DNA of 57,141 nt from Bacilli bacterium. GTDB taxonomy: Bacteria > Bacillota_I > Bacilli_A > RFN20 > CAG-826. The notes under the pieces are model-generated. The model saw only the letters and a program-made list of their open reading frames with translations, ran no database searches and was not told where the DNA came from. Numbering within the stretch: the first letter of the stretch is position 1; every line of letters begins with the position of its first letter. This document shows positions 4,154-26,589 of this stretch, piece by piece. The translations under genes and the position numbers were made by a program. Location of the stretch: NCBI GenBank assembly GCA_017619815.1, contig JAFZRR010000043.1, positions 1 to 57,141 on the forward strand, given 5' to 3'.

Positions 4154-5095
4154 ATGAAAGATAGTTTTAATAGAGAAGTTGATTACTTAAGAATATCAGT
4201 CACAGACTTGTGCAATTTGAGGTGTGTTTATTGCATGCCTTCTTGTGGCGTGTGCAAAAAAGAACATCAAGAAATCATCTCTGTTGAACGCATTAAGGAA
4301 GTTGTTTTAGCGGCTTCTAAATTAGGTATTACCAAAGTTCGTCTTACAGGTGGAGAACCACTTGTGAGAAAAGGAATAATTGAGATTTGCAAAGAAATTA
4401 AATCCATTTCTGCAATAAAAGAATTATGTCTAACTACGAATGGCGTGCTTTTAAAAAACATGGCGCAAACATTATTTGATGTTGGTGTAGATAGACTGAA
4501 TGTATCTTTAGATACACTTGATTTAAAAAAGTATGAACGCATCACAAGAGGTGGGAACCTTAATGATGTTCTTGGAGGTATCGAAAAAGCAAAAGCCGTT
4601 GGTTTTAAAAACATTAAGATCAACGCCGTCCTCATCGGTGGTTTTAATGATGATGAAATAACTGATTTTGTTGAATTTGCAAAGAAGGAAGAACTCACTG
4701 TTAGATTCATTGAACTTATGCCTATTGGCCAAGGAAAGTTAATGGGTAAAGAATCATTTGTATCTAACGATCTTATTTTTCAGAAGGTTCCTGATCTTAT
4801 TCAAACCAGAGATGATGGCGTGGCTAAAGAATATAGTTTCAAAGATTCAAAAGGTAAGATTGGTTTAATATCTCCATTGTCTCATAGCTTCTGTTCATCT
4901 TGTTCCCGCATCAGATTAACAAGCGATGGCAAAATAAAACCATGTTTACACTCATCTATGGAAATACCCACAAATGGTTTAGGTGGTGATGAGCTAGTGG
5001 AGACAATTAAAAAAGCAATACTATTAAAACCAGAGAAGCATCATCTGGAAATAGGTAGTGATTCTTTAAATAATATGAACGAGATTGGCGGATAA
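4154..5095 (+). CDS. moaA: GTP 3',8-cyclase (radical SAM)
   Basis: YLRISVTDLCNLRCVYC, RLTGGEPL, RFIELMPIG, FCSSCSRIRL...KPCL and C-terminal IGG. Confidence 0.96.
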   Translation: MKDSFNREVDYLRISVTDLCNLRCVYCMPSCGVCKKEHQEIISVERIKEVVLAASKLGITKVRLTGGEPLVRKGIIEICKEIKSISAIKELCLTTNGVLLKNMAQTLFDVGVDRLNVSLDTLDLKKYERITRGGNLNDVLGGIEKAKAVGFKNIKINAVLIGGFNDDEITDFVEFAKKEELTVRFIELMPIGQGKLMGKESFVSNDLIFQKVPDLIQTRDDGVAKEYSFKDSKGKIGLISPLSHSFCSSCSRIRLTSDGKIKPCLHSSMEIPTNGLGGDELVETIKKAILLKPEKHHLEIGSDSLNNMNEIGG

Positions 5096-5235: not shown

Positions 5236-6264
5236 ATGAAAAGAATTAATACTGTTGATGCGGTTGGCAAGATTTTATGCCACGACATTACACAAATCAT
5301 TCCAGGTGTTAATAAAGGACCTGTTTTTAAAAAAGGGCATGTTATCAGAGAAGAAGATATTCCAGTTCTTTTAAGTGTTGGAAAAGATCAAATCTTCATT
5401 TTGGAAAATGATGAAAATATGGTTCATGAAAATGATGCCGCAAATATCCTTGCTGGATTATGTGGTAAAGAGAATATTGACTGGTCCGAACCAAGCGAAG
5501 GAAAGATTGAACTTAGGGCCGCTATTGATGGTCTGTTTTTAGTTGACAATGAAAAACTACAAATTGTTAATTCTTTTGGGGAAATGATGATTGCTACTAG
5601 AGCTAGTGGTTTCCTTGTGAAAAAAGGTGATAAGTTAGCTGGCACAAGAATCATCCCTTTAGTTATTGAAAAAGAAAAGATGGATAAGGTTGTTTCTTTA
5701 GTGGGTTCAGAACCAATTATGAAAGTGGTTCCACTTAAGAAAAAGAACTATGGATTAGTGACAACTGGAAACGAAGTCTTCTATGGACGTATTAAAGATG
5801 CGTTTACACCAATACTTGAATCAAAATTAAAAGTCTTTGGGTGTGAAATGAAAGAGCACGTCATCTTGAATGATGATCATGAAAAGATAACCGCCGCTAT
5901 TAAAGAAATGCTTAGTCGTGGTCTTGATATGGTTATTTGTACAGGTGGTATGTCCGTTGATCCAGATGATAGAACGCCATTAGCTATTAAAAACAGTGGT
6001 GTTGATATCGTTACATATGGAGCACCAGTTTTACCAGGTGCTATGTTCCTAGTTTCTTATACAAAAGATAATAGGCCAGTTTTAGGCCTACCTGGGTGCG
6101 TTATGTATGCGAAAAGAACAATATTCGATTTGCTTCTTCCACGCATCTTAGCGGACGTAAAAATAAATAAAGAATACATGTCATCGTTAGGTAATGGCGG
6201 TCTCTGTTTGAATTGTGATGTATGCACATTCCCTAACTGTGGTTTTGGAAAGAGAGGTATGTAA
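5236..6264 (+). CDS. MoeA-like molybdopterin-binding protein with C-terminal Cys cluster
   Basis: [21 protein letters not shown] and [11 protein letters not shown]...LGLPG of the MoCF-biosynthesis domain; ends [19 protein letters not shown]. Confidence 0.85.
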
Positions 6265-6265
6265 A

Positions 6266-6733
6266 ATGAGTGAATTTACACACTTTGATGAAAAGGGCAA
6301 TGCCAGAATGGTGGATGTCGCAAATAAAGAAGTGACTCATAGAGTGGCTATCGCTGAAGGTGAAATCTATATGTCACCAGAATGTTTTCAAATGGTCAAA
6401 GAAGGAAAACATAAAAAAGGTGACGTTCTCACTGTTGCTACTGTCGCAGGTATTATGGCCGCAAAGAAAACCTCTGAAATAATTCCAATGACTCACAATA
6501 TCAATCTCACCAGTGTGAATGTTACATTTGAAGAAATTCAAAATGGTTATAAAACTATAGCCAAAGTTGAATGTGATGGAAAAACAGGTGTGGAAATGGA
6601 AGCCTTGCACGCAGTAAGTTCCGCGTTATTAACAATTTATGATATGTGCAAAGCGGTTGATAAGAGAATGGAAATCAACAATATTCATCTCTTAGAAAAA
6701 AGCGGTGGTAAATCAGGAGACTTTCATCGTTAA
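6266..6733 (+). CDS. moaC: Cyclic pyranopterin monophosphate synthase
   Basis: [50 protein letters not shown] and KSGGKSG. ATG at 6266 (GAGG RBS) is preferred over the track start at 6215. Confidence 0.96.
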
Positions 6734-6734
6734 T

Positions 6735-7679
6735 ATGGGAAAGATTGTTGCTATTTGCATCTCTGATAGAAAAGGTATTCAAAAGCACGAAATACCAGAA
6801 GCTACTTTTATGGCGAATTTTGGTATTGAAGGCGATGCACACGCTGGTACATGGCATCGTCAAATATCTTTCCTAGATGAAGAAGAGATTAATGCCTATA
6901 AAGAAAAAGGCGCCGAAATTACAAATGGTGCTTTCGGTGAAAACCTCATTATCCAAGGAATTAAAGTTAACCAATTATCAGTGGGTTCGTGGCTTAGATG
7001 TGGAGATGTGATATTCGAAATATCTCAAAAAGGAAAAGAGTGTCATGACCACTGCGCAATATATTACAAGATGGGTGAATGTATTATGCCAAGATTAGGA
7101 ACATTCGCCAAAGTAATCAAAGGCGGAAAAATCAAAAAAGGAGATGTAATTGAAGTGATTGAAAGAGAAAAACCATTTCCATACCAAGCAGCAGTTATTA
7201 CATTATCCGATGCTGGTTTCCGTGGTGAAAGAGAAGATATTTCAGGACCAACCATCGCAAAGCGATTGGTTCAAGAAGGATATGAAGTGGTGGAACAAAT
7301 CTTATTACCAGATGAGCCAAAGCTACTTCAAAAAGAATTAATTAGATTATGTGATCAAAGACAACTTGATTTAATTTTGACTACTGGTGGAACAGGATTC
7401 TCACATAGAGATCAAACACCAGAAGCTACATTAGCGATTATGGATAGAAATGCACCAGGCATTGCTGAAGCCATTAGAGCGGAGTCTTTGAAAATAACTC
7501 CACACGCGATGCTTTCTCGTGGTGTTTCTGTCATTAGAAAGAAAACTTTGATCATTAATCTTCCTGGTTCTCCAAAGGCATGCTTGGAGAGTATGGATGT
7601 ATTTATGAAAGCCATGCCACACGCAATTGGTTTATTGCGTAACGAAGTTTCAAATTGTGCGAAAGGAGATAAAAAATGA
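6735..7679 (+). CDS. MOSC-domain / MogA (molybdopterin adenylyltransferase) fusion
   Basis: N-half is MOSC (GIEGDAHAG..HRQIS, GAFGENL, KECHDHC..CIMPRLG). C-half is MogA/MoaB (ITLSD, TTGGTGFSHRDQTPEAT, MLSRG, INLPGSPKA). ATG at 6735 with AGGAG RBS. Confidence 0.9.
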   Translation: MGKIVAICISDRKGIQKHEIPEATFMANFGIEGDAHAGTWHRQISFLDEEEINAYKEKGAEITNGAFGENLIIQGIKVNQLSVGSWLRCGDVIFEISQKGKECHDHCAIYYKMGECIMPRLGTFAKVIKGGKIKKGDVIEVIEREKPFPYQAAVITLSDAGFRGEREDISGPTIAKRLVQEGYEVVEQILLPDEPKLLQKELIRLCDQRQLDLILTTGGTGFSHRDQTPEATLAIMDRNAPGIAEAIRAESLKITPHAMLSRGVSVIRKKTLIINLPGSPKACLESMDVFMKAMPHAIGLLRNEVSNCAKGDKK

Positions 7680-8506
7680 AAGCACAAAAAATAATTTTCA
7701 GTTGCCTTGGCGTTTTAGCACTCGTTGGCTGTTCAGCAAAAGCCAATGAAAACTTCATCCTAGGTTTAGGTGGAGAAAACGTCCCAGTTGGACAATATGC
7801 TTCCAAGATCTTAGAGTACTTCGGCTTAGATGAACAAGCATTAGCCCAAAAAGGCGTCATCTCTTATGGTGAAGACGTCAAAGCGGTTACAACTCAAGTC
7901 AAACAAGGCTTAGTCTCCGCTGGTATTATTTATGCGACAGATGCAAAATCTGCCAACTTAAAGGTTGTTGACACCGCCACAAAAGAAATGTGTGGACAAG
8001 TCATCTATCCTGCAGCCTGCATTAGCAATAGCACAGGCAAATTAGATGCTGCAAAATCATTCTTAGCTTACTTAACAAGCAACGAAGCTATGGCAGTATT
8101 TGAAAGTGTTGGTTTCTCCAAGGTTGGTGATCCACAAACTCCAATTACTCAAGTCACAAGTACAATCACATTGAATGTTTATGCTGCTGCTTCTATGACA
8201 GAAACAATGAACTCCATTAAGACAACATACGAAGCTGCTCATCCAAACATCACATTAGCGATGAACTATGGCTCTTCCGGAAAACTCCAAACTCAAATTC
8301 AAGAAGGTAGAGAACTTTGCGACTTATTTATCTCTGCTGGTGCCAAACAAATGAACGCTCTTCAAGATGGTGAATACATTGTTAATGACACAAGAATTAA
8401 TTTATTAGAAAATAAAGTTGCTTTATCAGTCCCAGATAAAAACCCAGCAAAAATTAACTCTTTTGAAGATTTAAAAGTTAAATTACAAAGCTATTTAGAC
8501 AAATAA
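7676..8506 (+). CDS. modA: Molybdate-binding lipoprotein ModA, circularly permuted
   Basis: Lipobox LVGC (Cys19). All ModA motifs are present (VPVGQY, GEDV, AGIIYATDA, YPAA, VYAAAS, YGSSGKLQTQI, DLFISA, LLENK) but the two halves are in swapped order. Lies directly upstream of modB and modC. Confidence 0.9.
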   Translation: MKAQKIIFSCLGVLALVGCSAKANENFILGLGGENVPVGQYASKILEYFGLDEQALAQKGVISYGEDVKAVTTQVKQGLVSAGIIYATDAKSANLKVVDTATKEMCGQVIYPAACISNSTGKLDAAKSFLAYLTSNEAMAVFESVGFSKVGDPQTPITQVTSTITLNVYAAASMTETMNSIKTTYEAAHPNITLAMNYGSSGKLQTQIQEGRELCDLFISAGAKQMNALQDGEYIVNDTRINLLENKVALSVPDKNPAKINSFEDLKVKLQSYLDK

Positions 8507-8508
8507 TT

Positions 8509-9177
8509 ATGAATCTATTCCCACTTTGGAACTCATTGAGAATTGCTCTTATTGCCACGGTAATAATCTTTTTCCTTGGCGTATTTTTAGCTTATCTTGT
8601 AAAGAAATGTCCCAAAGTGCTCAAAGGTATCATCGATGTTGTCTTAACATTACCTTTAGTTTTACCACCAACAGTGTGTGGCTATTTACTTATTCTAGTA
8701 TTTGGTCCTAACCACCCTGTTGGTGCGTTTTTACAAACCATGGGCATTCAGTTCTTTATGGATTGGAAAGGCGGAATATTAGCCTCCGTTATGGTGGCGT
8801 TCCCATTAATGTATAGAACCACAAGAGGTGCGTTTGAATCATTTGATGAAAACTTAGCCTCTGCAGGTAAGACATTAGGATTATCCAATTTTTATATTTT
8901 TTGGAGAATTAGAATGCCGGCTTGTAAAAATGGAATTATTGCCGGACTTGTTTTGGCCTTTGCTAGAGCATTAGGCGAATATGGTGCAACATCTATGCTT
9001 ATTGGATATAACCAATATAGAACTGCGACCATTTCCACAACAGTTGCGTATGCTTGGAATAATAACGATACTCAAACTGCCCTTGTTTGGGTTTTGATTA
9101 ACTTATTCATTTCCGCAATTGTTTTAGTCCTTATTAACATCTTTGAAAATAACAACAAGAAAGGAGCAAAACTATGA
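8509..9177 (+). CDS. modB: Molybdate ABC transporter permease
   Basis: LPLVLPPTVCGY, VAFPLMYR and FARALGEYGAT. Confidence 0.95.
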   Translation: MNLFPLWNSLRIALIATVIIFFLGVFLAYLVKKCPKVLKGIIDVVLTLPLVLPPTVCGYLLILVFGPNHPVGAFLQTMGIQFFMDWKGGILASVMVAFPLMYRTTRGAFESFDENLASAGKTLGLSNFYIFWRIRMPACKNGIIAGLVLAFARALGEYGATSMLIGYNQYRTATISTTVAYAWNNNDTQTALVWVLINLFISAIVLVLINIFENNNKKGAKL

Positions 9178-10217
9178 GTCTTTATGTTGATATAAAGAAA
9201 GATTTTGGTTCTTTCAAACTTAACGTTAAATTCGAAACAGAAGGTGGAGTCACCTCTATTTTAGGCGCCAGTGGTACTGGCAAATCTATGACTTTGAAAT
9301 GTATCGCCGGAATCGAAAAGCCAGATTCAGGCATCATAGTTTTAAATGGTAGGACATTGTTTGATTCTTCTAAGAAAATCAATCTTCCACCTCAAAAAAG
9401 ACATGTTGGATATATGTTCCAAAATTATGCTTTGTTCCCAAATATGACCGTGCGTCAAAACATTATGTGTGGCATGCACAATCAAGGCAAAGAAGTTGAT
9501 AAAGAATCAAAACTTTTAGCTATTGCTAAAAAGTTAAAAATTGATCACCTCTTGAAACATCGCCCACATCAAATTTCTGGTGGCCAAGCACAACGTGTTG
9601 CCTTAGCGAGAATTCTTGTTAATGATCCAGAAATTATCTTATTAGATGAGCCATTCTCCGCTTTAGATGAGCATTTAAGAAATCGTCTCCAAATTGAAAT
9701 GAAAGAAAACCTTAATGAGTTTAATAAGGAAGCTCTTTTGGTTACTCATAATCGTGATGAAGCCTATGTTCTTTCTAATGAAACTGTCATCTTGTCTGAA
9801 GGTGATAGCTTAATGCAAGGAAAGACAAAAGAAATCTTTATTAAACCTATATATTTAGAAACAGCGATTATCACTGGTTGTAAGAATTTTGCTCCATGTA
9901 TTAAGGTAGATGATCACACAATTGATATTCCTGATTGGGGGGTTAAATTCCATATTGATGAAGTGGTAAATGAAGATATAAATTATGTTGGATTAAGAGC
10001 TCACGAATTTGAAGTGAATGAAAAAGAGAACAAGAATAACATCAAAGTTTTAGAAGTTATTGAACAACCATTTGAAATTCAAGTTCGCTTCAAATATGAA
10101 AATCAAATTGATGATAGCGAAGAATTACTTTGGACGTTAAAAAAAGATTCCAAACCTTTCGTTTCACCGAAGCATTTAGGAATCAAATCGAATCATATTT
10201 TATTACTTAAGAAATAA
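9174..10217 (+). CDS. modC: Molybdate ABC transporter ATP-binding protein
   Basis: Walker A GASGTGKS, signature ISGGQAQRVALAR, Walker B LLDEPFSALD, INLPPQKRHVG; ATGA overlap with modB. Confidence 0.93.
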   Translation: MSLYVDIKKDFGSFKLNVKFETEGGVTSILGASGTGKSMTLKCIAGIEKPDSGIIVLNGRTLFDSSKKINLPPQKRHVGYMFQNYALFPNMTVRQNIMCGMHNQGKEVDKESKLLAIAKKLKIDHLLKHRPHQISGGQAQRVALARILVNDPEIILLDEPFSALDEHLRNRLQIEMKENLNEFNKEALLVTHNRDEAYVLSNETVILSEGDSLMQGKTKEIFIKPIYLETAIITGCKNFAPCIKVDDHTIDIPDWGVKFHIDEVVNEDINYVGLRAHEFEVNEKENKNNIKVLEVIEQPFEIQVRFKYENQIDDSEELLWTLKKDSKPFVSPKHLGIKSNHILLLKK

Positions 10218-10221
10218 TTTA

Positions 10222-11073
10222 TTATTTCTTGAAGAATTCACAAAGCTCAGGCACGTTGTTTCTCATGTGAGAATTGACTGCCTCTTTTTTATAGAAAATA
10301 GAAAGAATTTCACCGGCGATTGAGACTGCGATTTCTTCTGGAGAGTCGCCTCCAGTTTGTAGTCCGATTGGAGAATAGAAGTTTGATAAATCAATATCTC
10401 TACCGTGTTTTGCGAACAATTCATCGAGATAATCTTTTATCTTCTTTTTGCTACAAAGCATGCCGAAATATGCTGGCTTAATATTGAGTTCAAATATTGC
10501 ATCTAAAACATCATAGTCATGTAAATGACTTGGTGTACAAACAACGACATAACGATTGTCGGGCATGCCGTATTTTTTAAGATAATCCGCGAAGCCAATA
10601 TTAACTTTAACGTTCGCGGAATCATCTAATGCATTAATGACTTCTTTGCGGTCATCAATAATAGTGACAAAGAAATTTAATGGTCTTAATAATTTGGCTA
10701 ATGCCGCACCGCAGTGGCCAGCGCCAAAAATATAGACATATTGTTTAGGACCAACAAATTCATAGAATAGTGTAGCGGTTCCTCCGCAAGCCATATCGAG
10801 TTTAACTTCGTTATTAGAAACTTTAATTTCTTTATTGTTTAATAAATATTTTTCGGTAACAGATTCTCTGTTCTTGATAATCTCTTTGCACTTTTCGCGT
10901 GCGTAATACTCTATAGAACCTCCACCGACGGTACCAAAAGCTTCGTTATCTTCTGTAACGATCATTTTCTTTCCGACATCAGATGGGCCCATGCCTGTCT
11001 TTTCAGTGACAGTGACAATAACTAAATCCTTACCGGCGTTCTTGAGTTCTGCAATTTTGCTATAAATATCCAT
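10222..11073 (-). CDS. XdhC/CoxF-family molybdoenzyme maturation factor
   Basis: GTVGGGSIE, MACGG, IFGAGHCG, IDDR and YSPIGLQTGGDSPEEIAVSIAGEI. Confidence 0.9.
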   Translation of the reverse strand: MDIYSKIAELKNAGKDLVIVTVTEKTGMGPSDVGKKMIVTEDNEAFGTVGGGSIEYYAREKCKEIIKNRESVTEKYLLNNKEIKVSNNEVKLDMACGGTATLFYEFVGPKQYVYIFGAGHCGAALAKLLRPLNFFVTIIDDRKEVINALDDSANVKVNIGFADYLKKYGMPDNRYVVVCTPSHLHDYDVLDAIFELNIKPAYFGMLCSKKKIKDYLDELFAKHGRDIDLSNFYSPIGLQTGGDSPEEIAVSIAGEILSIFYKKEAVNSHMRNNVPELCEFFKK

Positions 11074-11075
11074 AT

Positions 11076-12758
11076 TTAAAACTTGATTCTTTCGTTGATA
11101 GTTTTGATTTTTTCAACGTTGAACTTAACGACTTGTCTATCGAATGTAATGAAGCCATTTAATTCATCTTCAACGTCACTTAACTGTGTGTAGATGCATG
11201 CGCTTAATCCTTTGCGGATATTGCTGATGACGTCTCTTTCAATCATCTTTTCATAAGCATCTAACCATTTGTCAGTATTCTTATAAACCTTATAAGTTTG
11301 TTTGCCTTTTCTCATATGGTCTCTAATTGGTAAGACGAGTCCACCAAATTCTGAGAGAACAACCGCGCGGTTCTTAATCTTATTTGCGCTTGGCATTTTT
11401 ACTTTTTTGAAATAGACGTGTAATGATTTCACATCACTGACACCTTGATCGTGCCAACCAGAAGCGTGATCGAACAATCTCGTTTTATCTAAGTCTCTTA
11501 GACCGTAGTAAATATCTTTTGCATCAAATTGCCCCCAACCTTCATTGAAGATTGTCCATAAAACAATTGATGGAGTGTTATATAAGTAGTTGATGATGTC
11601 ACGGAATTCTTGTCTAGCTTCCATACGACCTTCAACATCATTTCTTCCAAAGGCTTTATATTTGTTATCTTTTTTATGCTTACCAGTCACTAATGGTTTT
11701 AAAACAATTGATGGTTTATATTTGCCACCGCCATTAATGAAGTCTTGCCACACTAATAAACCCATGCGGTCGCATTCGTAATACCATCTTGGCATTTCAA
11801 TCTTGATATGTTTTCTAACTGTATTAAATCCTAAGGATTTGATTAATCCTAAGTCAGAAACATAATCCTGATAGGATTCCGGCGTATATAAGCCACCTTT
11901 ATAGTAGCCTTGGTCAAGAACACCTTTCATAAAATAAGGCTTGTTGTTAAGGGCTAAAACTTTATGGCCATTATGCATCATTGTGGAAACTTTTCTCATC
12001 GCGAAATAAGAAGAGATTTCATCACCTTTTGTTTTAACAGTGAAGCGATATAAGAATGGATCTTCTGGTGACCAAAGATGTGGATTATCAATTGGATAAC
12101 TCACTTCTTCATTTGTAGGAATAACCTTTTCTTTTCCAAAGATTTTAATCGTTGCGCCAGGAGCATCACTGATGACATTAATTCTCACTTCGTTATTATC
12201 AACATCTGGGGTGATTTTAAGTTCTTGAATGTAATCGTTAGAGACGCTCTCTAACCAAACTGGCATATAAATACCGGATTGAGGTGTATACCAAATACCG
12301 CCTCTTTTAATCTTTTGTTTGCCACGAGAGAAGTGGGATGTATCAGAAACATCTCTAACTTTAACTAATAAAACATTTTCATCTTCAAGGAATGGTTTGA
12401 TATCAAATTCAAATGGCAAATAACCACCGACATGTAAACCTAAATGTGCATCATTTAAATACACATCTGCGATTTGATCAACACCCATGAAATGGAGAAT
12501 AACTTTATCTTTGATAAAAGATTTATCTAAAGAGAATTTTAAACGATAGTATAATCTTTCATCTGGATGAACAGTTCTATTCACACCAGAAAGCTCGGTT
12601 TCAGGAGAAAATGGAACCATGATTTTACCATCAAAAGTATCAGGAACTTTTTTGTCTTTCCTGATTGCGTATTCCCATTCCCCATTCAAGCTAAGATAAC
12701 TATTTCTAACTAATTGTGGTCTTGGATAATCGATGAGTGGTTTATTCGCTCTGTTCAT
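11076..12758 (-). CDS. Glycoside hydrolase family 2 (short, beta-galactosidase/galactofuranosidase-like)
   Basis: YPRPQLVR..LNGEW, GGIWYTPQSGI, LDQGY, RKHIK, WTIFNEGWGQ (acid/base) and VLSEFGG (nucleophile). ATG at 12758 with GAAGGGG RBS is preferred over TTG at 12770. Confidence 0.88.
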   Translation of the reverse strand: MNRANKPLIDYPRPQLVRNSYLSLNGEWEYAIRKDKKVPDTFDGKIMVPFSPETELSGVNRTVHPDERLYYRLKFSLDKSFIKDKVILHFMGVDQIADVYLNDAHLGLHVGGYLPFEFDIKPFLEDENVLLVKVRDVSDTSHFSRGKQKIKRGGIWYTPQSGIYMPVWLESVSNDYIQELKITPDVDNNEVRINVISDAPGATIKIFGKEKVIPTNEEVSYPIDNPHLWSPEDPFLYRFTVKTKGDEISSYFAMRKVSTMMHNGHKVLALNNKPYFMKGVLDQGYYKGGLYTPESYQDYVSDLGLIKSLGFNTVRKHIKIEMPRWYYECDRMGLLVWQDFINGGGKYKPSIVLKPLVTGKHKKDNKYKAFGRNDVEGRMEARQEFRDIINYLYNTPSIVLWTIFNEGWGQFDAKDIYYGLRDLDKTRLFDHASGWHDQGVSDVKSLHVYFKKVKMPSANKIKNRAVVLSEFGGLVLPIRDHMRKGKQTYKVYKNTDKWLDAYEKMIERDVISNIRKGLSACIYTQLSDVEDELNGFITFDRQVVKFNVEKIKTINERIKF

Positions 12759-14079
12759 ATTCCCCTTCAATATTATTTTCAGTTAATTTTTGTTTCTCTT
12801 TTTTAATGATAATTAAAGTTGGAATAATTGCAAGTAGAATAACTAAACCAGCGAATAAGAAGATAAATGCGTTTGGTTGAATTACTGTTTGATTGTATTC
12901 ATTTACATATGTTTGAGCGTTGATATAAGACACGCCTCTACCAATATATGGACCAGTAACCATTGGAATAAGAACGATGAAAATCATTCTCACACCTTGG
13001 AATAAACCAACTTCATTAACTGGAGTGTAATCTCTGACTTTTGCACCGATAACTGCAGTACCAATCATATAGCCTGTCATCATGACTGTACCCGCAATCA
13101 TAACGCCAACCATGGCGAAGCTCTTTTGCACAAAGAACATACCAACCGCGCCTGCGACTGTGATGGCAATTGCAGGAATGATGATTTTGTTTTTGCCAAT
13201 CTTGTCCATGAATAAACCAAAGACAACAGTGATGATAGAAGCAAGGATTAAAACAACACCTAAAGTAATTGTGAAATTCAAATCTTTGATTTCTAAAACC
13301 TTATCGATATAAACCATCAAATATGGCATGAACACTTGAATACCAATGAAGAAGACCATGAAGGTAATTAAAACTAAATAAAGTAGTGGATTGGCTTTGA
13401 TGACTGATGGTCTAAAACCATAGAATATATTTTTAATATATGGCTCATTCTTATTTGGTTGGATTTGATCTTTTGGTAATAAGAAGATGCTGACAATACC
13501 AGCGACTGTTGTGAGGCCACCGATGATGACGAAGAATAATAACCAATTTCTCTTTCCTTCGGCGGTTAAAGCGCCATCTAAACCAACAACCACAATCATA
13601 GCGATAAGTGGAAGAATTGATAAAACACTTTCAACTTTTCCGCGGTTGCTCTCTTGTGTATTGTCTGTAACATATGCGTTAAATGCCGCGTCATTCGCGG
13701 TACTACCGAAGAATGTCATAACGCAGTCCATAACAACAATCATCGTACCTGCCGCCATCGCGGAACCAGCAACAAGACTGAGTTTAGAATTTGGATCTAA
13801 GAAAGCAAATAAGATAATGGAAATACCCCAGATGATGTAACCAAATGAGATAAAGGCTTTTCTTTTGCCTAACCTATCGCTTAAAGCTCCCATCAACAAA
13901 GTTGTAATTGTGGCAGCGGCTGCACTGGCAGCCACCATGATAGGAATGAATGTGTAATTCGCCGTACAATCAAACACATACAAATTGAAATAATTATTTT
14001 CAATTGCCCATGCTAATTGGCCTACAAAACCAGCGATGATAAATGAAAGCCATTTTCTGATTCCGATTTTATTATTCAT
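12742..14079 (-). CDS. MFS sugar transporter
   Basis: 12 TM segments; motif A GALSDRLGKRK and GLFMDKIGK; overlaps the GH2 start. Confidence 0.9.
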   Translation of the reverse strand: MNNKIGIRKWLSFIIAGFVGQLAWAIENNYFNLYVFDCTANYTFIPIMVAASAAAATITTLLMGALSDRLGKRKAFISFGYIIWGISIILFAFLDPNSKLSLVAGSAMAAGTMIVVMDCVMTFFGSTANDAAFNAYVTDNTQESNRGKVESVLSILPLIAMIVVVGLDGALTAEGKRNWLLFFVIIGGLTTVAGIVSIFLLPKDQIQPNKNEPYIKNIFYGFRPSVIKANPLLYLVLITFMVFFIGIQVFMPYLMVYIDKVLEIKDLNFTITLGVVLILASIITVVFGLFMDKIGKNKIIIPAIAITVAGAVGMFFVQKSFAMVGVMIAGTVMMTGYMIGTAVIGAKVRDYTPVNEVGLFQGVRMIFIVLIPMVTGPYIGRGVSYINAQTYVNEYNQTVIQPNAFIFLFAGLVILLAIIPTLIIIKKEKQKLTENNIEGEYEQSE

Positions 14080-14171
14080 ATTCTTAGTCCTCGGTTATAA
14101 GGATTTGCACCATTTCTATTATATTAGAAAAATATATAGCGAGTATGTATTTTTACGATTATATTATTGCT

Positions 14172-15044
14172 ATGGAAACAAAATTCATTGTCATTAAAAA
14201 TGAATACCTCGAAGTCACTCTCTCAACATTAGGAGCTTCTATTTATAGAATCATCTTCGATGGAAAAGATATGGTGCTCACGCCCAAAGATAAAAATGAT
14301 TTTTATAAAACCAGTGTTTATTACGGAAAAACTATCGGTAGAGTTTGTGGAAGAATTGAAATAAAAGACACTTTGAACTTTAAGCCACAAGCCAATGAAA
14401 GTGGTGTTTCCCTCCATGGTGGTTTTGATGGTTTATCCACAAAAGAATTCAATGTGGATGCAAAACCAACATATGCAGAATTCCATTATTTATCTAAAGA
14501 TGGTGAAGCTGGATATCCTGGAAATATGATATTCAGAGTGAGATATGAATTAATTGATAATTCTTTAATTATTTCTTACTTCACGGTTACCGATAAACCT
14601 TGCCTATTAGCAATGACCAATCACGCATATTTCTGTTTAGGAGAAGATAAATTAGATAATTTATATCTCAAGATGGAAAACGAGAAATATTTAGTCGTGG
14701 ATAATCGTTTATTACCAGTTGAATATGAATCAATACCAGAAAAATTCAACTTTACCAACGGTAAAAAACTTGATAAAACTGGTGATATTGATAACTATTT
14801 CCTTTTCAAAGAAAAGGCTGTTGAACTTTACTCAGATAAATATTCTTTGAATATCCAAACAAATTTTGTGGGAACTCAACTTTTTACTGATCATTGGCTT
14901 GATAATGTAGAAGTTTATTCCAGTAAAGAAAAAGTTTGTCGCGCAATCGCAATTGAACCACAAGATAATCAATTAGAAAGAAAAGAATTATTACCCCATG
15001 AACATTACGAAAGGTATATTAGATACACATTTAAGAAATTATGA
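14172..15044 (+). CDS. galM: Aldose 1-epimerase (galactose mutarotase)
   Basis: GKTIGRVCGRI, LHGG, GYPGN, TNHAYF and AIEPQ. Start chosen at METKF (14172); 14145 is also possible. Confidence 0.9.
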   Translation: METKFIVIKNEYLEVTLSTLGASIYRIIFDGKDMVLTPKDKNDFYKTSVYYGKTIGRVCGRIEIKDTLNFKPQANESGVSLHGGFDGLSTKEFNVDAKPTYAEFHYLSKDGEAGYPGNMIFRVRYELIDNSLIISYFTVTDKPCLLAMTNHAYFCLGEDKLDNLYLKMENEKYLVVDNRLLPVEYESIPEKFNFTNGKKLDKTGDIDNYFLFKEKAVELYSDKYSLNIQTNFVGTQLFTDHWLDNVEVYSSKEKVCRAIAIEPQDNQLERKELLPHEHYERYIRYTFKKL

Positions 15045-20217: not shown

Positions 20218-20239
20218 AAAAGGACCTTAAGGTCCTTTT
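20218..20239. terminator. Bidirectional intrinsic terminator
   Basis: Perfect palindrome AAAAGGACC-TTAA-GGTCCTTTT between convergent genes. Confidence 0.8.
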
Positions 20240-22559
20240 ATTTTACTTCTAACTTGATTTCTTTAACGATATCATCCATCGAAATTGTTATTTTAGCTTG
20301 TCCTGGTTTATTCTCAGAGAACACGAACAATGATAGTTGTCCACCAAGTAGTGATTGAGCATTATCGCCCAATACTTTAATTGGTCCTTCACACTCAATT
20401 TTGATCACTCTATTGGAGTATTGCATGAGTGAACCATTTTCATCAATATGTTTAACGACAATACGCGCCGCATCATAAGTGTCTTTATTTTCTAAGACAG
20501 TTTTAGATGGTTCTACAAGTAAGTCGAACTTCTTTGATGGACCAACTTTCTTGGTAACCACTAATTGATCATTCTTATAGCCTTTGAATGTATAAGTCTT
20601 AGCAATACCACCCCATGAACCAACATGAGTATTGTAATAATCGACTAGTTCAGCATATGTGACTTTGTATTTTTTCATCATATATGCGAGATAGAGTTTT
20701 TCTTTTAATGTTAAGGCATTGAAACCCTGCGTAGCAGCATGTGTGAACATCTTTGCTATTTTTGGCCAGCTCTTCTTTGCAAATCTTTCTTCTTTGAAAG
20801 TTTCTCCCACCAAGTCATCAACTAGTATTGGTGGATGTGGCAAATATTTAAATTGATTATGCTTTGGATAGTAGCGAGCCACAAACTCGTCATTCTTAAA
20901 TAAGTCAAAGTAGTCACAATTTGTTGTGACATATATATCGAAGTATCTCGCTTCTGGATAATCACCAGGTTTCATATTTGAGATAACTTCTAACATTGGT
21001 TCTTTAACTAATTGAGAAGCATAGATATAAGAACTATGTTTTGGATTTCTATATAAGTCATAAACACCATGTGGGCAAATATGATCACCAGATCCAAAAT
21101 CAACGTGAGTGTGATAGTCAAAACCACACCAACCAATCGCACCACACACATTCTCGTACTTAAAATTATCATCTATAACTTTCGCATGTCTAAGTGCTAC
21201 TTCGACTTTTGTTCTTTCGTCGGAAGTAGGTTTAACTGGATCCATGTGTCCAAGATACTCCGTAACCAAATATGGTTTACCTTGTGTTTTAACTTTCTTT
21301 GGATTGATTAGTCCGATGCGCATAGAATCACAAGAGAAGTCATTATAGGCGTAAATATCTTCTAAAAGTTCTGAATCTCTAAAGTTTCTGACCCCTAATG
21401 TTTGTCTTGTTGAATCTAGTTCATGTGCAAGTGCATTTGCCTTTTCATATAAATCGTGATCATCTTGAGATTCATCTATACGCACACCGTGGGCAATTAA
21501 TGAAGGATGATTTCTTTGTGTTTTAACCATTGCTTGTAGGTAAAACATGAAATTGTCTCTCCACTCTTTTTCTTTACCAATATGTTGCCATCCTGGAATC
21601 TCGTTAACTGTGAGTAAACCAATCTCATCACATCTATTTAAGAAGTGTTCACTTTGAGGATAATGAGATTGTCTTACAATATTAATTCCGGTTTTGAATT
21701 TTAATAAATCAGCATCTTCTTCTTGCATAGCTTTTGGCATTGCGTAACCAACATATGGATAGCCTTGATGTCTGTTCAAACCAACAAGTTTAACTTTTTT
21801 GTCATTGAGGTAGAATCCATCTGGTTTGAAGATTGCTTTTCTAAAACCAAAGCGAGTTTGGTATTCTTCATCGCCATCTTTACTATGAATTTTGGTAACT
21901 AATGTATATAGATTTGGTTGTTCTAAGTCCCAAAGGGAAGGATTCTCAACCTTAAATTGATTTTGGTCTGATTCACAAACTAATTTGTCTTTCAAAAATA
22001 CTTTGTGAGACACTTCAATTTCTTCATTTCCAACCTTATCAAATTGCACATCAACTAAGCCGGAAATGTCACTCTTCACAAAGAGATTTTCAATATATGT
22101 TTTTGGGTGAACTTCAACAGAGACTTCACGATAAATTCCACTGAATGTTAAGTAGTCTACTGCATATCCAAATGGTGGAATTAAAGGATCTTCAGAAGAA
22201 TCTAAAACTACGACTAATCTATTGCCCTTTTGCTTCACAAATTCAGTGACATCAAGTTTTACTTGAACCCAACCAGAAATGTGCTCGCCAAGATCGTGAC
22301 CATTTAAATATATTTTGGCCTTTAACATATATCCATCAAAGACCAAATTAACTATTTTATTTTCAATATTTTCTTCAATATCAAATAGTTTTTCGTATGT
22401 CGAAACAACCTGATAATCCTTCTCATTGAAGTAGTTATAAGGTACCTCTTTTGCGCAGTGCGGAATGTTAATTCGTTGACTACTATTAGGGAGCTTATTT
22501 AAATACTCGTCTTTATAGTCGCTAATGAATTGCCAATCGTAGTTTATTGCATGTTTCAT
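20238..22559 (-). CDS. GH2 beta-galactosidase
   Basis: DYLTFSGIYREV, GLNRHQGYPYVG, RQSHYPQ, EIPGWQ, GVRIDES and YLVTEYLGH. Confidence 0.92.
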   Translation of the reverse strand: MKHAINYDWQFISDYKDEYLNKLPNSSQRINIPHCAKEVPYNYFNEKDYQVVSTYEKLFDIEENIENKIVNLVFDGYMLKAKIYLNGHDLGEHISGWVQVKLDVTEFVKQKGNRLVVVLDSSEDPLIPPFGYAVDYLTFSGIYREVSVEVHPKTYIENLFVKSDISGLVDVQFDKVGNEEIEVSHKVFLKDKLVCESDQNQFKVENPSLWDLEQPNLYTLVTKIHSKDGDEEYQTRFGFRKAIFKPDGFYLNDKKVKLVGLNRHQGYPYVGYAMPKAMQEEDADLLKFKTGINIVRQSHYPQSEHFLNRCDEIGLLTVNEIPGWQHIGKEKEWRDNFMFYLQAMVKTQRNHPSLIAHGVRIDESQDDHDLYEKANALAHELDSTRQTLGVRNFRDSELLEDIYAYNDFSCDSMRIGLINPKKVKTQGKPYLVTEYLGHMDPVKPTSDERTKVEVALRHAKVIDDNFKYENVCGAIGWCGFDYHTHVDFGSGDHICPHGVYDLYRNPKHSSYIYASQLVKEPMLEVISNMKPGDYPEARYFDIYVTTNCDYFDLFKNDEFVARYYPKHNQFKYLPHPPILVDDLVGETFKEERFAKKSWPKIAKMFTHAATQGFNALTLKEKLYLAYMMKKYKVTYAELVDYYNTHVGSWGGIAKTYTFKGYKNDQLVVTKKVGPSKKFDLLVEPSKTVLENKDTYDAARIVVKHIDENGSLMQYSNRVIKIECEGPIKVLGDNAQSLLGGQLSLFVFSENKPGQAKITISMDDIVKEIKLEVK

Positions 22560-22604: not shown

Positions 22605-24944
22605 ATGCTAAAAACTACTGAAAATGTCTTTGTCATCAGCACAAAGAGTTTGTCCTATGTTTTTCATGCGGATAAAACTGGACTACTGTTCCATGACTAT
22701 TTTGGAAAAAAAGTCGACCTCGTGGATTTTGATGTAAAATCACTCTCCGTTAAGCCATCTGTTCAAAAGGGAACATCTACAATGTACGATGAGTCCCAAA
22801 ACAAAGAGCTTTCAATGGATGTGGTTCCATTAGAATTTTCCTTCCCACATAAAGGCGACTATAAGAGCACACCAATCCTCTTAAAGAACGAAAAGTTTGG
22901 GTATGTATTTGATTTCAAATTTGATCGATTTGAACAAAGAGAGCCTAAAGCTTTAGAAGGACTCCCAACTCCTCATTCCGCAAACGAAGAGTTAGTTATC
23001 ATCTTAAAAGATGAAAAAGCCAATGTTGAAGTCGAACTTCATTATTTGGTCTTTGAAGAATGCGATGTCATTTGCCGTAACGTTACTATAGTAAATAATG
23101 GCGAACTTGAATTATCCGTTCTCAAAGCGCTTTCCTATCAACTTGACCTAGTGAATAGAGAGTTTGAATTAACCACTCTAACAGGCGGTTGGGCAAGCGA
23201 AATGAATCAACAAAAGCAAACACTAATAGTGGAAGGCAAATACTCCGTAGAATCAAGAACCGGAAACTCTTCTTGTAGAGCCAATCCATTCTTCATGCTC
23301 AAAGAGAAATCAGCCAGCCTAGATCATGGTGATGTTTATTTATTCAACCTCATCTATAGCGGAAACCACTTAGAAGAAATTGAATTATCACATTATGGAT
23401 TAGTTCGTGTTGAAGCCGGTATTAATCCATTCTGTTTCGAATTTAAACTCAAACAAGGCGAAAGATTTGAAACTCCTTACGCAGTTTTAACTTATTCCGA
23501 TAAAGGAATTAATGGTGCTCGCCTTAATATGCACCATTTTACGAATAACCATGTCATTCCATCCCAGTGGAATAACACGATAAGACCAGTGGTTATTAAT
23601 AACTGGGAAGGCACATACTTTAAATTCACAGAATCAAAGTTATTAGCCTTAGCAAACGATGCAAAAAAATATGGCGCTGAACTATTTGTTTTAGATGACG
23701 GATGGTTTGGTGCGAGAAACTCTGATACAGCGGGTTTAGGCGACTATAACGTCAATAAGAAAAAGTTACCATCAGGCCTTTCTGGACTCAGCAAAAAGAT
23801 ACATAAGAAAGGTATGAAATTTGGACTTTGGTTTGAACCTGAAGCGGTCAATCCAGACTCCGATTGTTACCGCGCTCACCCTGAATGGGCAATCAAGTGT
23901 GTTGACCGCGAACCATCATTAGGAAGACACGAATTGATACTAAATCTTTCTTTGAAAGATGTTCAAGACTACTTGATTAATTCCGTCTCTGGAATCTTGA
24001 ATTCCGCGAAGATTGAGTTTGTTAAATGGGACATGAACAGAAACATTTCTGACATCACCTTTAACGACTATGAACCAGGTGAATTTTATCACCGCTACAT
24101 GCTCGGTTTATATCGTGTTTTAAGTGAACTCACAAAACGTTTCCCAGATGTTTTATTTGAAGGATGCGCCAGTGGTGGTAATAGATTTGATTTAGGTATT
24201 CTTTCTTACTTCCCACAAATTTGGGCAAGTGATGATACTGATGCTCATGAAAGAATCACCATTCAAAGCGGTTATTACCTTGGATATCCACAAAGCACAG
24301 TGTCCGCTCATGTATCGAGTTCTCCATCTCACCAATTATTGAGAAGAACTCCGATTGAAACTAGATTCAATGTTGCGATGTTTGGTGTTCTTGGATTTGA
24401 GTTATTGTTTAACGAATTAGACAAACTCGAAAAGAAGAAATGTAAACAGCTTATTGAAGTCTATAAAGCCAATCGTGAAGTGCTTCAATTTGGTGATTTC
24501 TATGAATTAGATAGTTATTCAAATAACTTCCATAAATGGCAAGTCTTATCTAAAGATAAAAAATCAAGTTTGATTGGCCATTTTAATGTTCTTCAATTAA
24601 CTCATGCACCAGAAACTATCCTCAATGCAAATGGTTTAATTGATGAACAAAAATATAAGATTGATGTTGTCAGTTTAGAACATAACATTAAGGAATTTGG
24701 TGGACTAGTTAATATGCTTACTCCAGTCCATCTCAATCCAAATGGATGGGTTGTTAATCTTTTATCAAAGAAAATGACCATTCCTTATGAAAAAGAATCT
24801 TATGTTGCCTATGGTAACGCAATCAATAATAAAGGCATTATATTGAACCCAGAATGGTCCGCTTCTGGCCTTAATGAAGGAGTTAGGGTTTTAGAAGATT
24901 TCGGATCGAGATTATATTTGGTTAAAGCAGATGAAACAAACTAA
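22605..24944 (+). CDS. GH36 alpha-galactosidase
   Basis: INNWEGTYF, LFVLDDGWFG, FGLWFEPE, KWDMNR, EGCASGGNRFD and WASDDTD. Confidence 0.95.
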   Translation: MLKTTENVFVISTKSLSYVFHADKTGLLFHDYFGKKVDLVDFDVKSLSVKPSVQKGTSTMYDESQNKELSMDVVPLEFSFPHKGDYKSTPILLKNEKFGYVFDFKFDRFEQREPKALEGLPTPHSANEELVIILKDEKANVEVELHYLVFEECDVICRNVTIVNNGELELSVLKALSYQLDLVNREFELTTLTGGWASEMNQQKQTLIVEGKYSVESRTGNSSCRANPFFMLKEKSASLDHGDVYLFNLIYSGNHLEEIELSHYGLVRVEAGINPFCFEFKLKQGERFETPYAVLTYSDKGINGARLNMHHFTNNHVIPSQWNNTIRPVVINNWEGTYFKFTESKLLALANDAKKYGAELFVLDDGWFGARNSDTAGLGDYNVNKKKLPSGLSGLSKKIHKKGMKFGLWFEPEAVNPDSDCYRAHPEWAIKCVDREPSLGRHELILNLSLKDVQDYLINSVSGILNSAKIEFVKWDMNRNISDITFNDYEPGEFYHRYMLGLYRVLSELTKRFPDVLFEGCASGGNRFDLGILSYFPQIWASDDTDAHERITIQSGYYLGYPQSTVSAHVSSSPSHQLLRRTPIETRFNVAMFGVLGFELLFNELDKLEKKKCKQLIEVYKANREVLQFGDFYELDSYSNNFHKWQVLSKDKKSSLIGHFNVLQLTHAPETILNANGLIDEQKYKIDVVSLEHNIKEFGGLVNMLTPVHLNPNGWVVNLLSKKMTIPYEKESYVAYGNAINNKGIILNPEWSASGLNEGVRVLEDFGSRLYLVKADETN

Positions 24945-26589
24945 TTGGTATAAAGACGCAGTTATATATCAAATCTATCCCCGTTCTTTTTGTGATGGAA
25001 ATGGTGATGGCTTAGGTGATATACCTGGCATTATTTCAAAACTAGACTACTTAAAAGATCTAGGTGTGAATTGTGTTTGGCTATCTCCAGTTTATGATTC
25101 TCCCCAAGAAGATAATGGATATGATATCTCTAATTATAGAGATATTTATAAACCATTTGGTACATTAGATGATTTCAAAAAGATGTTAGACGAGATGCAC
25201 AAAAGAGGCATTCGTTTGATTATGGATTTAGTAGTTAACCATACATCTAGTGAACATGAATGGTTCAAGTCTGCAATCAGTGACAAGAACTCTCCGTATA
25301 GAGATTATTACATTATTAAAAAAGGCCGCAAAAACGGCAAAAAACCTCCAAATAACTGGACAGGTTTCTTTGGTGAAAAAGCCTGGGAAAGAATTGGAGA
25401 TACTGAAGATTACTACTTACATCTATTTGCTAAAGGACAGCCAGATTTAAACTGGGAAAACGGAAAAGTGAGAGAAGAAGTAAAAGATATTCTCCGCTAT
25501 TGGTTAGATATGGGTGTGGATGGCTTTAGATGTGATGTCATAACTTTGATTTCTAAAGACCAAAGATTCAAAAATGTTGGACCAACAATTGCCCTTGCGG
25601 GTAAGAAGTACTATGTAAATGGCCCAAGACTTCATGAATTCCTCCATGAGTTATATGTAGATGTCTATCAAAACTATGATTGTATGACTGTTGGTGAAAC
25701 TGTCTTGTCCACACTTGATGATGCAAGAAAACTTGTTGAACCAGAAAGACAAGAACTCTCAATGATATTCAACTTTGATCACACCGATGTTGATAATCAT
25801 ATGGGCGTGAAGTATTTCTTAAGAAAATTCAAAGTCAAAAACTTAAAGAAAGTAGTAGATAAATGGCAACATGGTTTATATGGAAAAGGATGGAATTCTT
25901 TATTCATCGAAAACCATGACCAAAGAAGAAGTGTTGGAAGATTTGGAACTGACGATACTAAGTATCGAATTGAATCTGCTTGTATGTTAGGAGCCACATA
26001 TTTCTTCTTACAGGGAACCCCATTCATTTATCAAGGACAAGAGATTGGCATGACAAATGGTGATTTCAAAACCATTGATGATGTCAAGGATGTCGAAGCT
26101 CATAACATCTATAATCTCGCTAATAAAGTCAAAATCTTGAAACCAATTGTTAATAAGAGTTTGCTACAAGTTAGTAGAGATAACGCTAGAACCCCAATGC
26201 AATGGGATGATAGTGAATATGCTGGTTTCTCAACCGTGGAGCCATGGCTCAAAGTTAACAAAAATAAATGCTGTATCAATGTTAAAGAAAGCATTGAATA
26301 TTCCGACTCCATTTATCATTTCTATCAAAAACTCATCGCCTTCAGAAAAGGTAATGAAGTAATAAAAGATGGAGAATATATTGATTTATTAAAATCAAAT
26401 AGTAAGATATTTGCTTATAAACGTAAATTAGGCGAGAAGGAAATAATCATCGTCAGTAATTTCACAAATAAAGAAGTCAAATTACCTGCTATTGAGGGAT
26501 TAGACAAATTTGAAATTACATTAAGCAATTATGTGAAACATACCCCTGTCTTAAAACCATACGAGACAAGAGTGTACAAGAATTATTAG
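24931..26589 (+). CDS. GH13 oligo-1,6-glucosidase/alpha-glucosidase
   Basis: YQIYPRSF, DNGYDIS, MDLVVNHTS, QPDLNWEN, DGFRCDVI, TVGE, ENHDQ and SRDNARTPMQW. Confidence 0.95.
   Translation: MKQTNWYKDAVIYQIYPRSFCDGNGDGLGDIPGIISKLDYLKDLGVNCVWLSPVYDSPQEDNGYDISNYRDIYKPFGTLDDFKKMLDEMHKRGIRLIMDLVVNHTSSEHEWFKSAISDKNSPYRDYYIIKKGRKNGKKPPNNWTGFFGEKAWERIGDTEDYYLHLFAKGQPDLNWENGKVREEVKDILRYWLDMGVDGFRCDVITLISKDQRFKNVGPTIALAGKKYYVNGPRLHEFLHELYVDVYQNYDCMTVGETVLSTLDDARKLVEPERQELSMIFNFDHTDVDNHMGVKYFLRKFKVKNLKKVVDKWQHGLYGKGWNSLFIENHDQRRSVGRFGTDDTKYRIESACMLGATYFFLQGTPFIYQGQEIGMTNGDFKTIDDVKDVEAHNIYNLANKVKILKPIVNKSLLQVSRDNARTPMQWDDSEYAGFSTVEPWLKVNKNKCCINVKESIEYSDSIYHFYQKLIAFRKGNEVIKDGEYIDLLKSNSKIFAYKRKLGEKEIIIVSNFTNKEVKLPAIEGLDKFEITLSNYVKHTPVLKPYETRVYKNY

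Follow-up and report, generated by a model that had tools for sequence, protein, structure and literature searches.

The window analysed here is a 57,141-nucleotide stretch of DNA (contig JAFZRR010000043.1, assembly GCA_017619815.1) from a Bacilli bacterium of the gut. The product of the open reading frame (ORF) at positions 7676–8506 is, as judged from its alignments, homologous to the molybdate-binding protein ModA but not colinear with it: two segments are exchanged relative to the homologues, and the old termini are joined by a 16-residue linker. This ORF very likely encodes a functional, naturally circularly permuted ModA that is predicted to capture molybdate (or tungstate). The protein is not unique; it is a member of a small family permuted in the same way (type 1), and an independent second family (type 2) exists.

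Order of the ModA segments

Canonical ModA was represented by TIGR01256, Pfam SBP_bac_11, binding-protein cluster D-IIIa and the solved structures 4kd5, 1amf, 2h5y and 8zj6. In phmmer searches against chains of the Protein Data Bank (PDB), 12 of the 14 matches to the window protein fell into two stretches. With Clostridioides difficile ModA (4kd5), chain residues 5–102 corresponded to query residues 163–260 (independent E-value 7.4e-18) and chain residues 118–232 to query residues 33–150 (2.1e-11), and both halves were at most about 50% identical to 4kd5. Family profiles gave the same exchange. Positions 1–100 of the 227 in SBP_bac_11 fell on residues 166–267, and positions 1–93 of the 217 in TIGR01256 (modA) on residues 171–267; PF13531 scored 134.5 bits and TIGR01256 107.5 bits, above their respective cut-offs of 25 and 62.5. 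When mapped to the DNA, positions 1–100 of PF13531 were located at nucleotides 8171–8476 and positions 112–226 at nucleotides 7775–8116. A colinear profile match was absent with Pfam, TIGR01256 and phmmer alike, the ModA segments being present but in exchanged order. The circular permutation claimed in a first-pass annotation of this DNA was therefore confirmed by the solved ModAs and by both profile collections. That annotation had proposed searching the halves against ModA for exchanged coordinates, and such a pair of exchanged stretches was obtained; the motif strings that it quoted were all found in the translation in the order given.

The layout of the gene is given in Table 1. The part that is C-terminal in canonical ModA comes first and contains VPVGQY, DVKAV, IIYATDA, VIYPAA and VGF, whereas the canonical N-terminal part, which follows, contains AAAS, GSSG, DLFISAG and LLENKVAL and closes with a terminal helix at residues 263–275 (DSSP of the predicted model). 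The linker between them is bounded by the invariant G146-F147 before it in the homologue alignment and by a strand beginning at I164 after it, seen in the same alignment and in the AlphaFold2 (AF2) model. The nucleotide span proposed earlier for the linker (8117–8164) was kept, and its residue limits were adjusted to 148–163. In front of both parts stands a signal peptide with LVGC19, which fits the lipobox consensus.

The arrangement is common to other proteins. With N and C denoting the canonical ModA parts, the permuted order is C-N and the canonical order N-C. Among the 120 matches listed from the first protein search, 42 were C-N, 70 were canonical N-C and eight had longer mixed orders. 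The 42 C-N relatives were 53–100% identical to the window protein; one of them represents the cluster of the window protein itself, which was recorded from five contigs. In an alignment of 32 permuted homologues (54–85% identity), the invariant residues were C19, V36-P37-V38-G39, Y41, K69, V71, Y86, T88-D89-A90, A171-A172-S173 and S200-S201-G202. Permuted ModAs are filed in public databases under the ordinary ModA name.

Predicted fold, function and alternatives

The AF2 model, run with the 32 permuted homologues, had a mean predicted local distance difference test score (pLDDT) of 90.3 and a predicted template modelling score (pTM) of 0.82. The pLDDT was below 50 only for residues 1–24, and it was 83 in the linker block 151–160. 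Foldseek, a sequential aligner, matched ModA chains to the model locally (71–75 columns, root-mean-square deviation 0.9–1.3 Å, 28–49% identity), and its end-to-end alignments were to the PstS-like 4h1x (template modelling score 0.53), to the Bacillus subtilis OpuAC chains 2b4m, 2b4l and 3chg (0.46–0.50), to HtxB and to HisG. Local matches to ModA combined with end-to-end matches to other type II proteins are what would be expected of a permuted model. Together with the sequence and the confidence scores, the local matches suggest that the fold equals that of ModA. No PDB structure with the permuted ModA order was found by phmmer or Foldseek.

The ModA of Pseudomonas aeruginosa has its N- and C-terminus in lobe A, which two hinges link to the other lobe, according to the available part of its description (PMC9171197). 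From the alignment to 4kd5 and these published lobe positions, the new termini would lie in lobe B, roughly 10–15 residues before the VPxGxY ligand helix; lobe A would now be continuous and lobe B split, with the lipid tether on lobe B. The earlier suggestion that the lipid anchor sits on the opposite lobe follows from this same alignment and the published lobe boundaries. After Cys19, the chain would start in canonical lobe B and cross into lobe A, where it would pass through the former C-terminus, the 16-residue linker and the former N-terminus, and it would then run back across to place its final helix in lobe B.

All oxyanion-contacting segments are present, namely the AAAS loop (strand 1/helix 1), GSSG (strand-2 region), VPxGxY, DVK-V and YxTDA. 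Putative ligand-contacting residues were assigned in part from E. coli ModA. These segments of the permuted protein align to the same segments in 4kd5, 8zj6 and 2h5y. Ligand-contacting residues were also assigned from the available part of the P. aeruginosa ModA paper (PMC9171197). Because all five segments are retained, a Venus-flytrap site should form as in ordinary ModA, and the lipid-anchored protein would capture molybdate (or tungstate) and hand it over to the ModB2C2 importer, whose genes follow immediately. We infer the identity of the ligand, the lobe of the anchor and the docking on ModB, and any effect of the permutation on ModB docking or Mo/W selectivity is speculative.

Docking was modelled by complex prediction with two ModB. 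The score of 0.56, compared with 0.00 for the best control, points weakly to a complex; contact agreement between runs was 92% or more, and the partners had a pLDDT of at least 83. Of 80 solved complexes, 58 reached the mark applied, as did two of 110 mismatches; among these passing scores, those of 0.60 or lower came from only seven of the solved complexes and from both mismatches. The pass may reflect likeness, ModA–ModBC complexes being solved.

A functional protein with a shifted ligand or role (tungstate, another oxyanion, or a sensor uncoupled from ModBC) is quite unlikely. Such a shift is favoured by the tether on a different lobe, by the binding of molybdate, tungstate and chromate at ModA-type sites (reported in the available part of PMC9171197), and by weak, partial matches to WtpA models. 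The WtpA matches, however, reached 29 bits against a cut-off of 355, and the best family match is modA, whose TIGR01256 cut-off was exceeded. Canonical relatives share the ligand-segment columns, and translational coupling to modB-modC was found in three type 1 loci and one type 2 locus. The equivalog model of E. coli-type ModA, NF007958, gave 93.5 bits against a cut-off of 253, which counts against the main reading and leaves the protein outside that equivalog.

A real rearrangement in a decaying or non-functional gene is very improbable. No ModA match was found in 36 of the 41 genomes from the window's genus, family and order, which speaks for decay. The frame of the gene itself is nevertheless intact, with its lipobox, its Shine-Dalgarno-like site and translational coupling: the modA ATG overlaps the stop codon of the upstream gene (ATGA), and modB starts 3 nt past the modA stop. 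Within the ORF, 15 sites varied among strains and 14 of these changes were synonymous, indicating that the permuted modA is under purifying selection; the sole replacement, T158A, lies in the linker. The ligand segments are invariant in the 32 homologues, and no second ModA was found by protein search, PF13531 or TIGR01256 in the source genome, which is 91% complete (1.22 Mb, 65 contigs) and keeps Moco (molybdenum cofactor) synthesis genes and two molybdoenzymes. The earlier view that the gene is functional and not decayed is supported by these observations, as well as by the sharing of its order with the 42 listed relatives, its operon context and the confident fold prediction.

An assembly chimera is excluded, because contigs of independent runs cross the junction. 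We compared per-run contigs from four public runs of three studies over positions 7400–8800. In run X1, which may be the source sample, a single contig covered the whole interval with no differences, and in run X3 a contig covered 7980–8800, again with no differences. The contig of run X4, from a second study, covered 7829–8431 with nine differences, and that of run X6, from a third study, covered 7400–8429 with 23 differences. All four crossed the junction at 8117–8164 with no joints and no indels. To the idea that an assembler joined ordinary modA halves in the wrong order we give virtually no credence: the source is a metagenome-type assembly and several odd N-C-N or C-N-C database proteins resemble mis-assembled tandem genes, but the contigs of the three studies, some with strain-level differences, cross the junction, and the order is common to 41 other 90% clusters, to the species-representative genomes L002 and L082 and to a further family. 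Run X4 also held an otherwise unrelated 1112-nt contig of which a 33-nt piece matched 7985–8017 with two differences; this piece covers the region coding for the conserved MCGQVIYP and is probably from the modA of another organism.

Permuted families and the origin of the permutation

In a 50%-identity library of 1.84 billion representatives, 8801 matched at E ≤ 0.001, and the best 150 of these comprised 123 N-C, 10 C-N and 17 fragments or other orders. Among 80 loci in species-representative genomes, 79 were canonical and one was permuted (a metagenome-assembled genome of an uncultured Erysipelotrichaceae bacterium). Five of the 41 genomes from the window's genus, family and order had a ModA match; it was permuted in the window's genome and in another genus of the family, and canonical in two congeners and one further family member. 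The operon order MoeA-MoaC-MOSC/MogA-ModA-ModB-ModC was identical in relatives with a permuted (L002, L082) or a canonical ModA. Canonical and permuted modA occupy the same operon slot, including within one genus.

The second family came to light through two C-N representatives, P0274 and P0276, which end right after the strand LL-N-VVLIVP and have the next helix moved to the N-terminus. The helix that ends the window protein is thus the one with which type 2 proteins start. The type 2 proteins resemble the window type in their C-N order, their lipoprotein signal and the modB-modC genes downstream. With P0276 as query, 113 proteins not seen before were listed, of which 80 were C-N with the same end, 32 were canonical and one was a tandem; the type 2 family is larger than the type 1 family of the window. 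Its members include P0414 of Anaerocolumna xylanovorans, named in NCBI/UniRef as a molybdate ABC transporter substrate-binding protein, and proteins encoded on 2.5–3.3 Mb contigs, and all bear the ordinary ModA name. The exchange in P0414 maps onto 4kd5 residues 6–95 and 94–229, and its AF2 model had a pLDDT of 90.1 and a pTM of 0.80. On 4kd5, the type 2 breakpoint lies at about 94/95 and the type 1 breakpoint at about 113–117, some 20 residues apart. In the family that holds Moryella indoligenes, 55 of 151 genomes sampled had a match at E ≤ 1e-10, and only one of these was a full-length colinear type 2 match, with modB and modC downstream.

Trees were built from redundancy-reduced sets of 92 rows (244 half-pairs) and 103 rows (427 units) and from 46 hand-picked rows that included more divergent members and low-GC canonical proteins. 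All were quick searches over about 240 columns, and P0015, P0166, P0355 and N-C proteins longer than 400 aa were excluded. In the 103-row tree, type 2 formed one clade (SH-aLRT support 99) that was nested among canonical ModAs and apart from type 1. A joint clade of all permuted rows cost 133.5 log-likelihood units in the 46-row set (P-value of the approximately unbiased test, p-AU, 1.25e-9). The trees thus indicate at least two independent ModA permutations, since the joint clade is rejected.

A search for longer proteins yielded nine clusters of single-chain tandem ModA-ModA (N-C-N-C, 518–582 aa), one of which occurred on seven contigs of up to 133 kb and another of which had 50 member sequences. 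In most of these proteins, the two copies are mutual nearest relatives. The tandem fusions demonstrate a route and not the ancestry of the window protein, because the tandem copies pair together and lie among high-GC canonical ModAs. The mutual nearness of the copies suggests recent or repeatedly homogenised duplications, and the tandem proteins P0155–P0163 carry an SPI-type signal peptide.

The most probable source of the permutation is a tandem duplication of modA, the exact path being inferred. Such a duplication, in frame, would have given signal peptide-N-C-N-C; an in-frame deletion would then have removed the first N part while retaining the signal peptide, and truncation of the second C part would have left signal peptide-C-N. 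The first-pass annotation had likewise proposed that duplication and fusion came first and that the outer halves were then lost. The existence of tandem fusions lends that proposal indirect support.

Several results weigh against this history. The tandem proteins group among high-GC canonical ModAs. To the canonical ModA of a congener, the window protein is 57% identical in the N part and 61% in the C part, compared with 64–79% (N part) and 66–88% (C part) for other permuted proteins. Tests of a single type 1 origin disagree: in the 92-row set p-AU was 0.649 and the constrained tree even beat the quick free tree, whereas in the 46-row set a single origin was 56.7 units worse (p-AU 0.016). Because the window protein is closer to permuted proteins than to the canonical ModA of its congeners, its gene was probably gained in permuted form and not rearranged at its present site. 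Rearrangement in place of the genus's own canonical modA was rejected as the simplest reading, given the lower identity to the congener.

A permutation that bypassed tandem fusion, such as one by recombination of two modA copies or by the splitting and rejoining of half-genes, is unlikely. None of the tandem fusions identified is the sister group of the window's clade, and canonical and permuted rows interleave in the 103-row tree, as such an origin would allow. The nine clusters of in-frame ModA-ModA fusions, however, belong to the same ModA lineage, and an N-C-N protein, P0008, shares its linker and C-terminal end with a permuted group. No half-genes with their own start were identified among the matches, where the contig ends of C-only rows were unexamined and no search for shorter proteins was made. 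P0008 (406 aa, on a single 3989-nt contig) reads signal peptide-N-C-linker-N, and its signal peptide resembles that of the same permuted group; it may be a relic of an intermediate stage or the product of a chimeric contig.

Other candidates were set aside. P0015, P0028, P0029, P0032, P0043 and P0049 were rejected as intermediates; long runs of their sequence are identical to the tandem P0160, and they appear to be fragments or mis-assemblies of its tandem gene. P0164–P0171 (about 520 aa, scored N-C-N) were rejected as tandem ModAs, their second module being divergent. These are lipoproteins in which a canonical ModA is joined to a divergent ModA-like module, one of them named for Pseudoflavonifractor sp. 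AF19-9AC, and they may bind two ligands or have two binding sites. In the long proteins P0172–P0196, ModA is linked to a PF00528 ModB-type permease or to PF00994 MoCF_biosynth, which may reflect genuine fusion or gene calls that read through.

A wider reading, which we hold as possible but doubtful, is that modA of monoderm gut Bacillota repeatedly converts between canonical and permuted forms through tandem fusions, and that the permuted form persists through a benefit of the tether on lobe B. This reading would build on the two or more permutations affecting the same lobe at different breakpoints, and possibly on further ones, with possible reversions within the window's family. The benefit of the tether might lie, for example, in orientation toward ModB or in freedom of lobe closure; a similar proposal exists for the permuted lipoprotein TpMglB-2.

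Genomic setting, known permuted proteins and significance

The permuted modA lies in a cluster of Moco synthesis and mod genes (Table 1). The true start of moaC is probably later than the listed GTG, and modC overlaps modB. The MOSC-MogA/MoaB fusion is kept beside both permuted and canonical modA in relatives. Another contig of the genome encodes two enzymes of the xanthine-dehydrogenase family (PF02738); on this contig, C51, the PF02738 genes lie on the reverse strand at 8241–8939 and 14169–14885, in ORFs of 705 and 779 aa. No match to a PF00384-type molybdopterin oxidoreductase was found in the source genome. The organism needs the molybdenum cofactor, as its Moco genes and the two PF02738 enzymes indicate. 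The cluster is flanked by glycoside hydrolases (two GH2, a GH36 melibiase and an alpha-amylase family member) and sugar transporters, at window positions 11076–12770, 20238–22559, 22605–24944 and 24931–26589.

Table 1. Positions of the permuted modA, its parts and the neighbouring genes in the window
Feature	Positions	Strand	Basis
Permuted modA	7676–8506	+	276 aa plus stop, open ORF
Shine-Dalgarno-like AAGGAG	7663–7668	+	7 nt before modA ATG, read in sequence
Signal peptide with lipobox L-V-G-C, Cys19 predicted lipidation site	7676–7732	+	Sequence; C19 invariant in homologues
Residues 26–147, canonical ModA C-terminal part	7751–8116	+	phmmer against 4kd5; PF13531
Linker, residues 148–163, old C-terminus to old N-terminus	8117–8164	+	Variable alignment columns
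Residues 164–276, canonical ModA N-terminal part	8165–8503	+	phmmer against 4kd5; PF13531
modB permease	8509–9177	+	BPD_transp_1 3.9e-21; syntenic beside permuted and canonical modA
modC ATPase	9174–10217	+	ABC_tran 1e-32; synteny
moaA (radical SAM and Mob_synth_C), first gene of the Moco/mod cluster	4154–5095	+	PF04055 1.9e-36, PF06463 1.7e-28
MoeA-like molybdopterin-binding protein	5236–6264	+	Pfam MoCF_biosynth 5.5e-25; syntenic in L002
moaC	6215–6733	+	Pfam MoaC 2.8e-55, residues 32–165
MOSC and MogA/MoaB-type fusion	6705–7679	+	Pfam MOSC 1.3e-11, MoCF_biosynth 1.8e-32
xdhC-type Moco insertion chaperone, convergent with modC	10222–11073	-	XdhC_C 4.3e-29, XdhC_CoxI 5.5e-15

The permuted protein is like canonical ModA in its ligand segments, in being a lipoprotein as in other Bacillota and in its modABC operon. 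Unlike canonical ModA, it has its halves exchanged, a 16-residue linker joining the old termini, and new termini that would fall within the lobe left unsplit in the canonical protein. Natural permutation of other binding proteins has already been published, and permuted ModAs are already in the databases under the ordinary name. A description of a naturally permuted ModA was not found in the full-text literature searched, which did not cover most subscription journals; the first-pass annotation had likewise known of none.

The closest published parallel concerns TpMglB-2 (Tp0684) of Treponema pallidum, which the available part of its report (PMC4990184) describes as a naturally permuted, lipid-tethered ABC binding protein of "Type Ic / Cluster Bc". 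According to the same text, glucose binding and conformational change are retained, most homologues come from treponemes and Gram-positive gut bacteria, and the authors speculate that the permutation is tied to tethering. Its permuted part is 13% identical to the canonical counterpart, and its origin is obscure (PMC4990184). TpMglB-2 has a Type I (cluster B) sugar-binding fold, whereas the permuted ModA would be a type II oxyanion-binding protein with halves 55–65% identical to canonical relatives and with tandem intermediates in existence. The likeness is one of analogy, the window protein lacking a Type I fold with a permuted N lobe.

Deeper relations have been described with CPSARST, by which glycine-betaine-binding proteins, ModA (1ATG, 1AMF) and CysB were found to be structurally related by circular permutation, between families and at less than 24% identity (available part of PMC2395249). 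Those cases show permutation to be tolerated by type II binding-protein folds, and the end-to-end alignment of our model with OpuAC is in keeping with them; unlike those relations, the present permutation is recent and falls inside the ModA family.

The ModA family appears to offer an unusually clean natural case of duplication-driven permutation, in which canonical, fused tandem and two differently cut permuted forms occur together, identity is high enough to trace each ModA half, and both versions share an operon slot within one genus. Annotation pipelines label the permuted proteins as ordinary ModA and leave the rearrangement unflagged. The set opens three questions to direct test: how a binding protein with two lobes that close on a hinge accommodates new termini, whether delivery to the ABC permease depends on where the lipid tether sits, and whether permuted and canonical ModAs interchange with each other's ModBC. 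For oxyanion sensors built on ModA, it also supplies permutation sites that nature has already validated, and its main interest is for protein evolution and the engineering of binding proteins.

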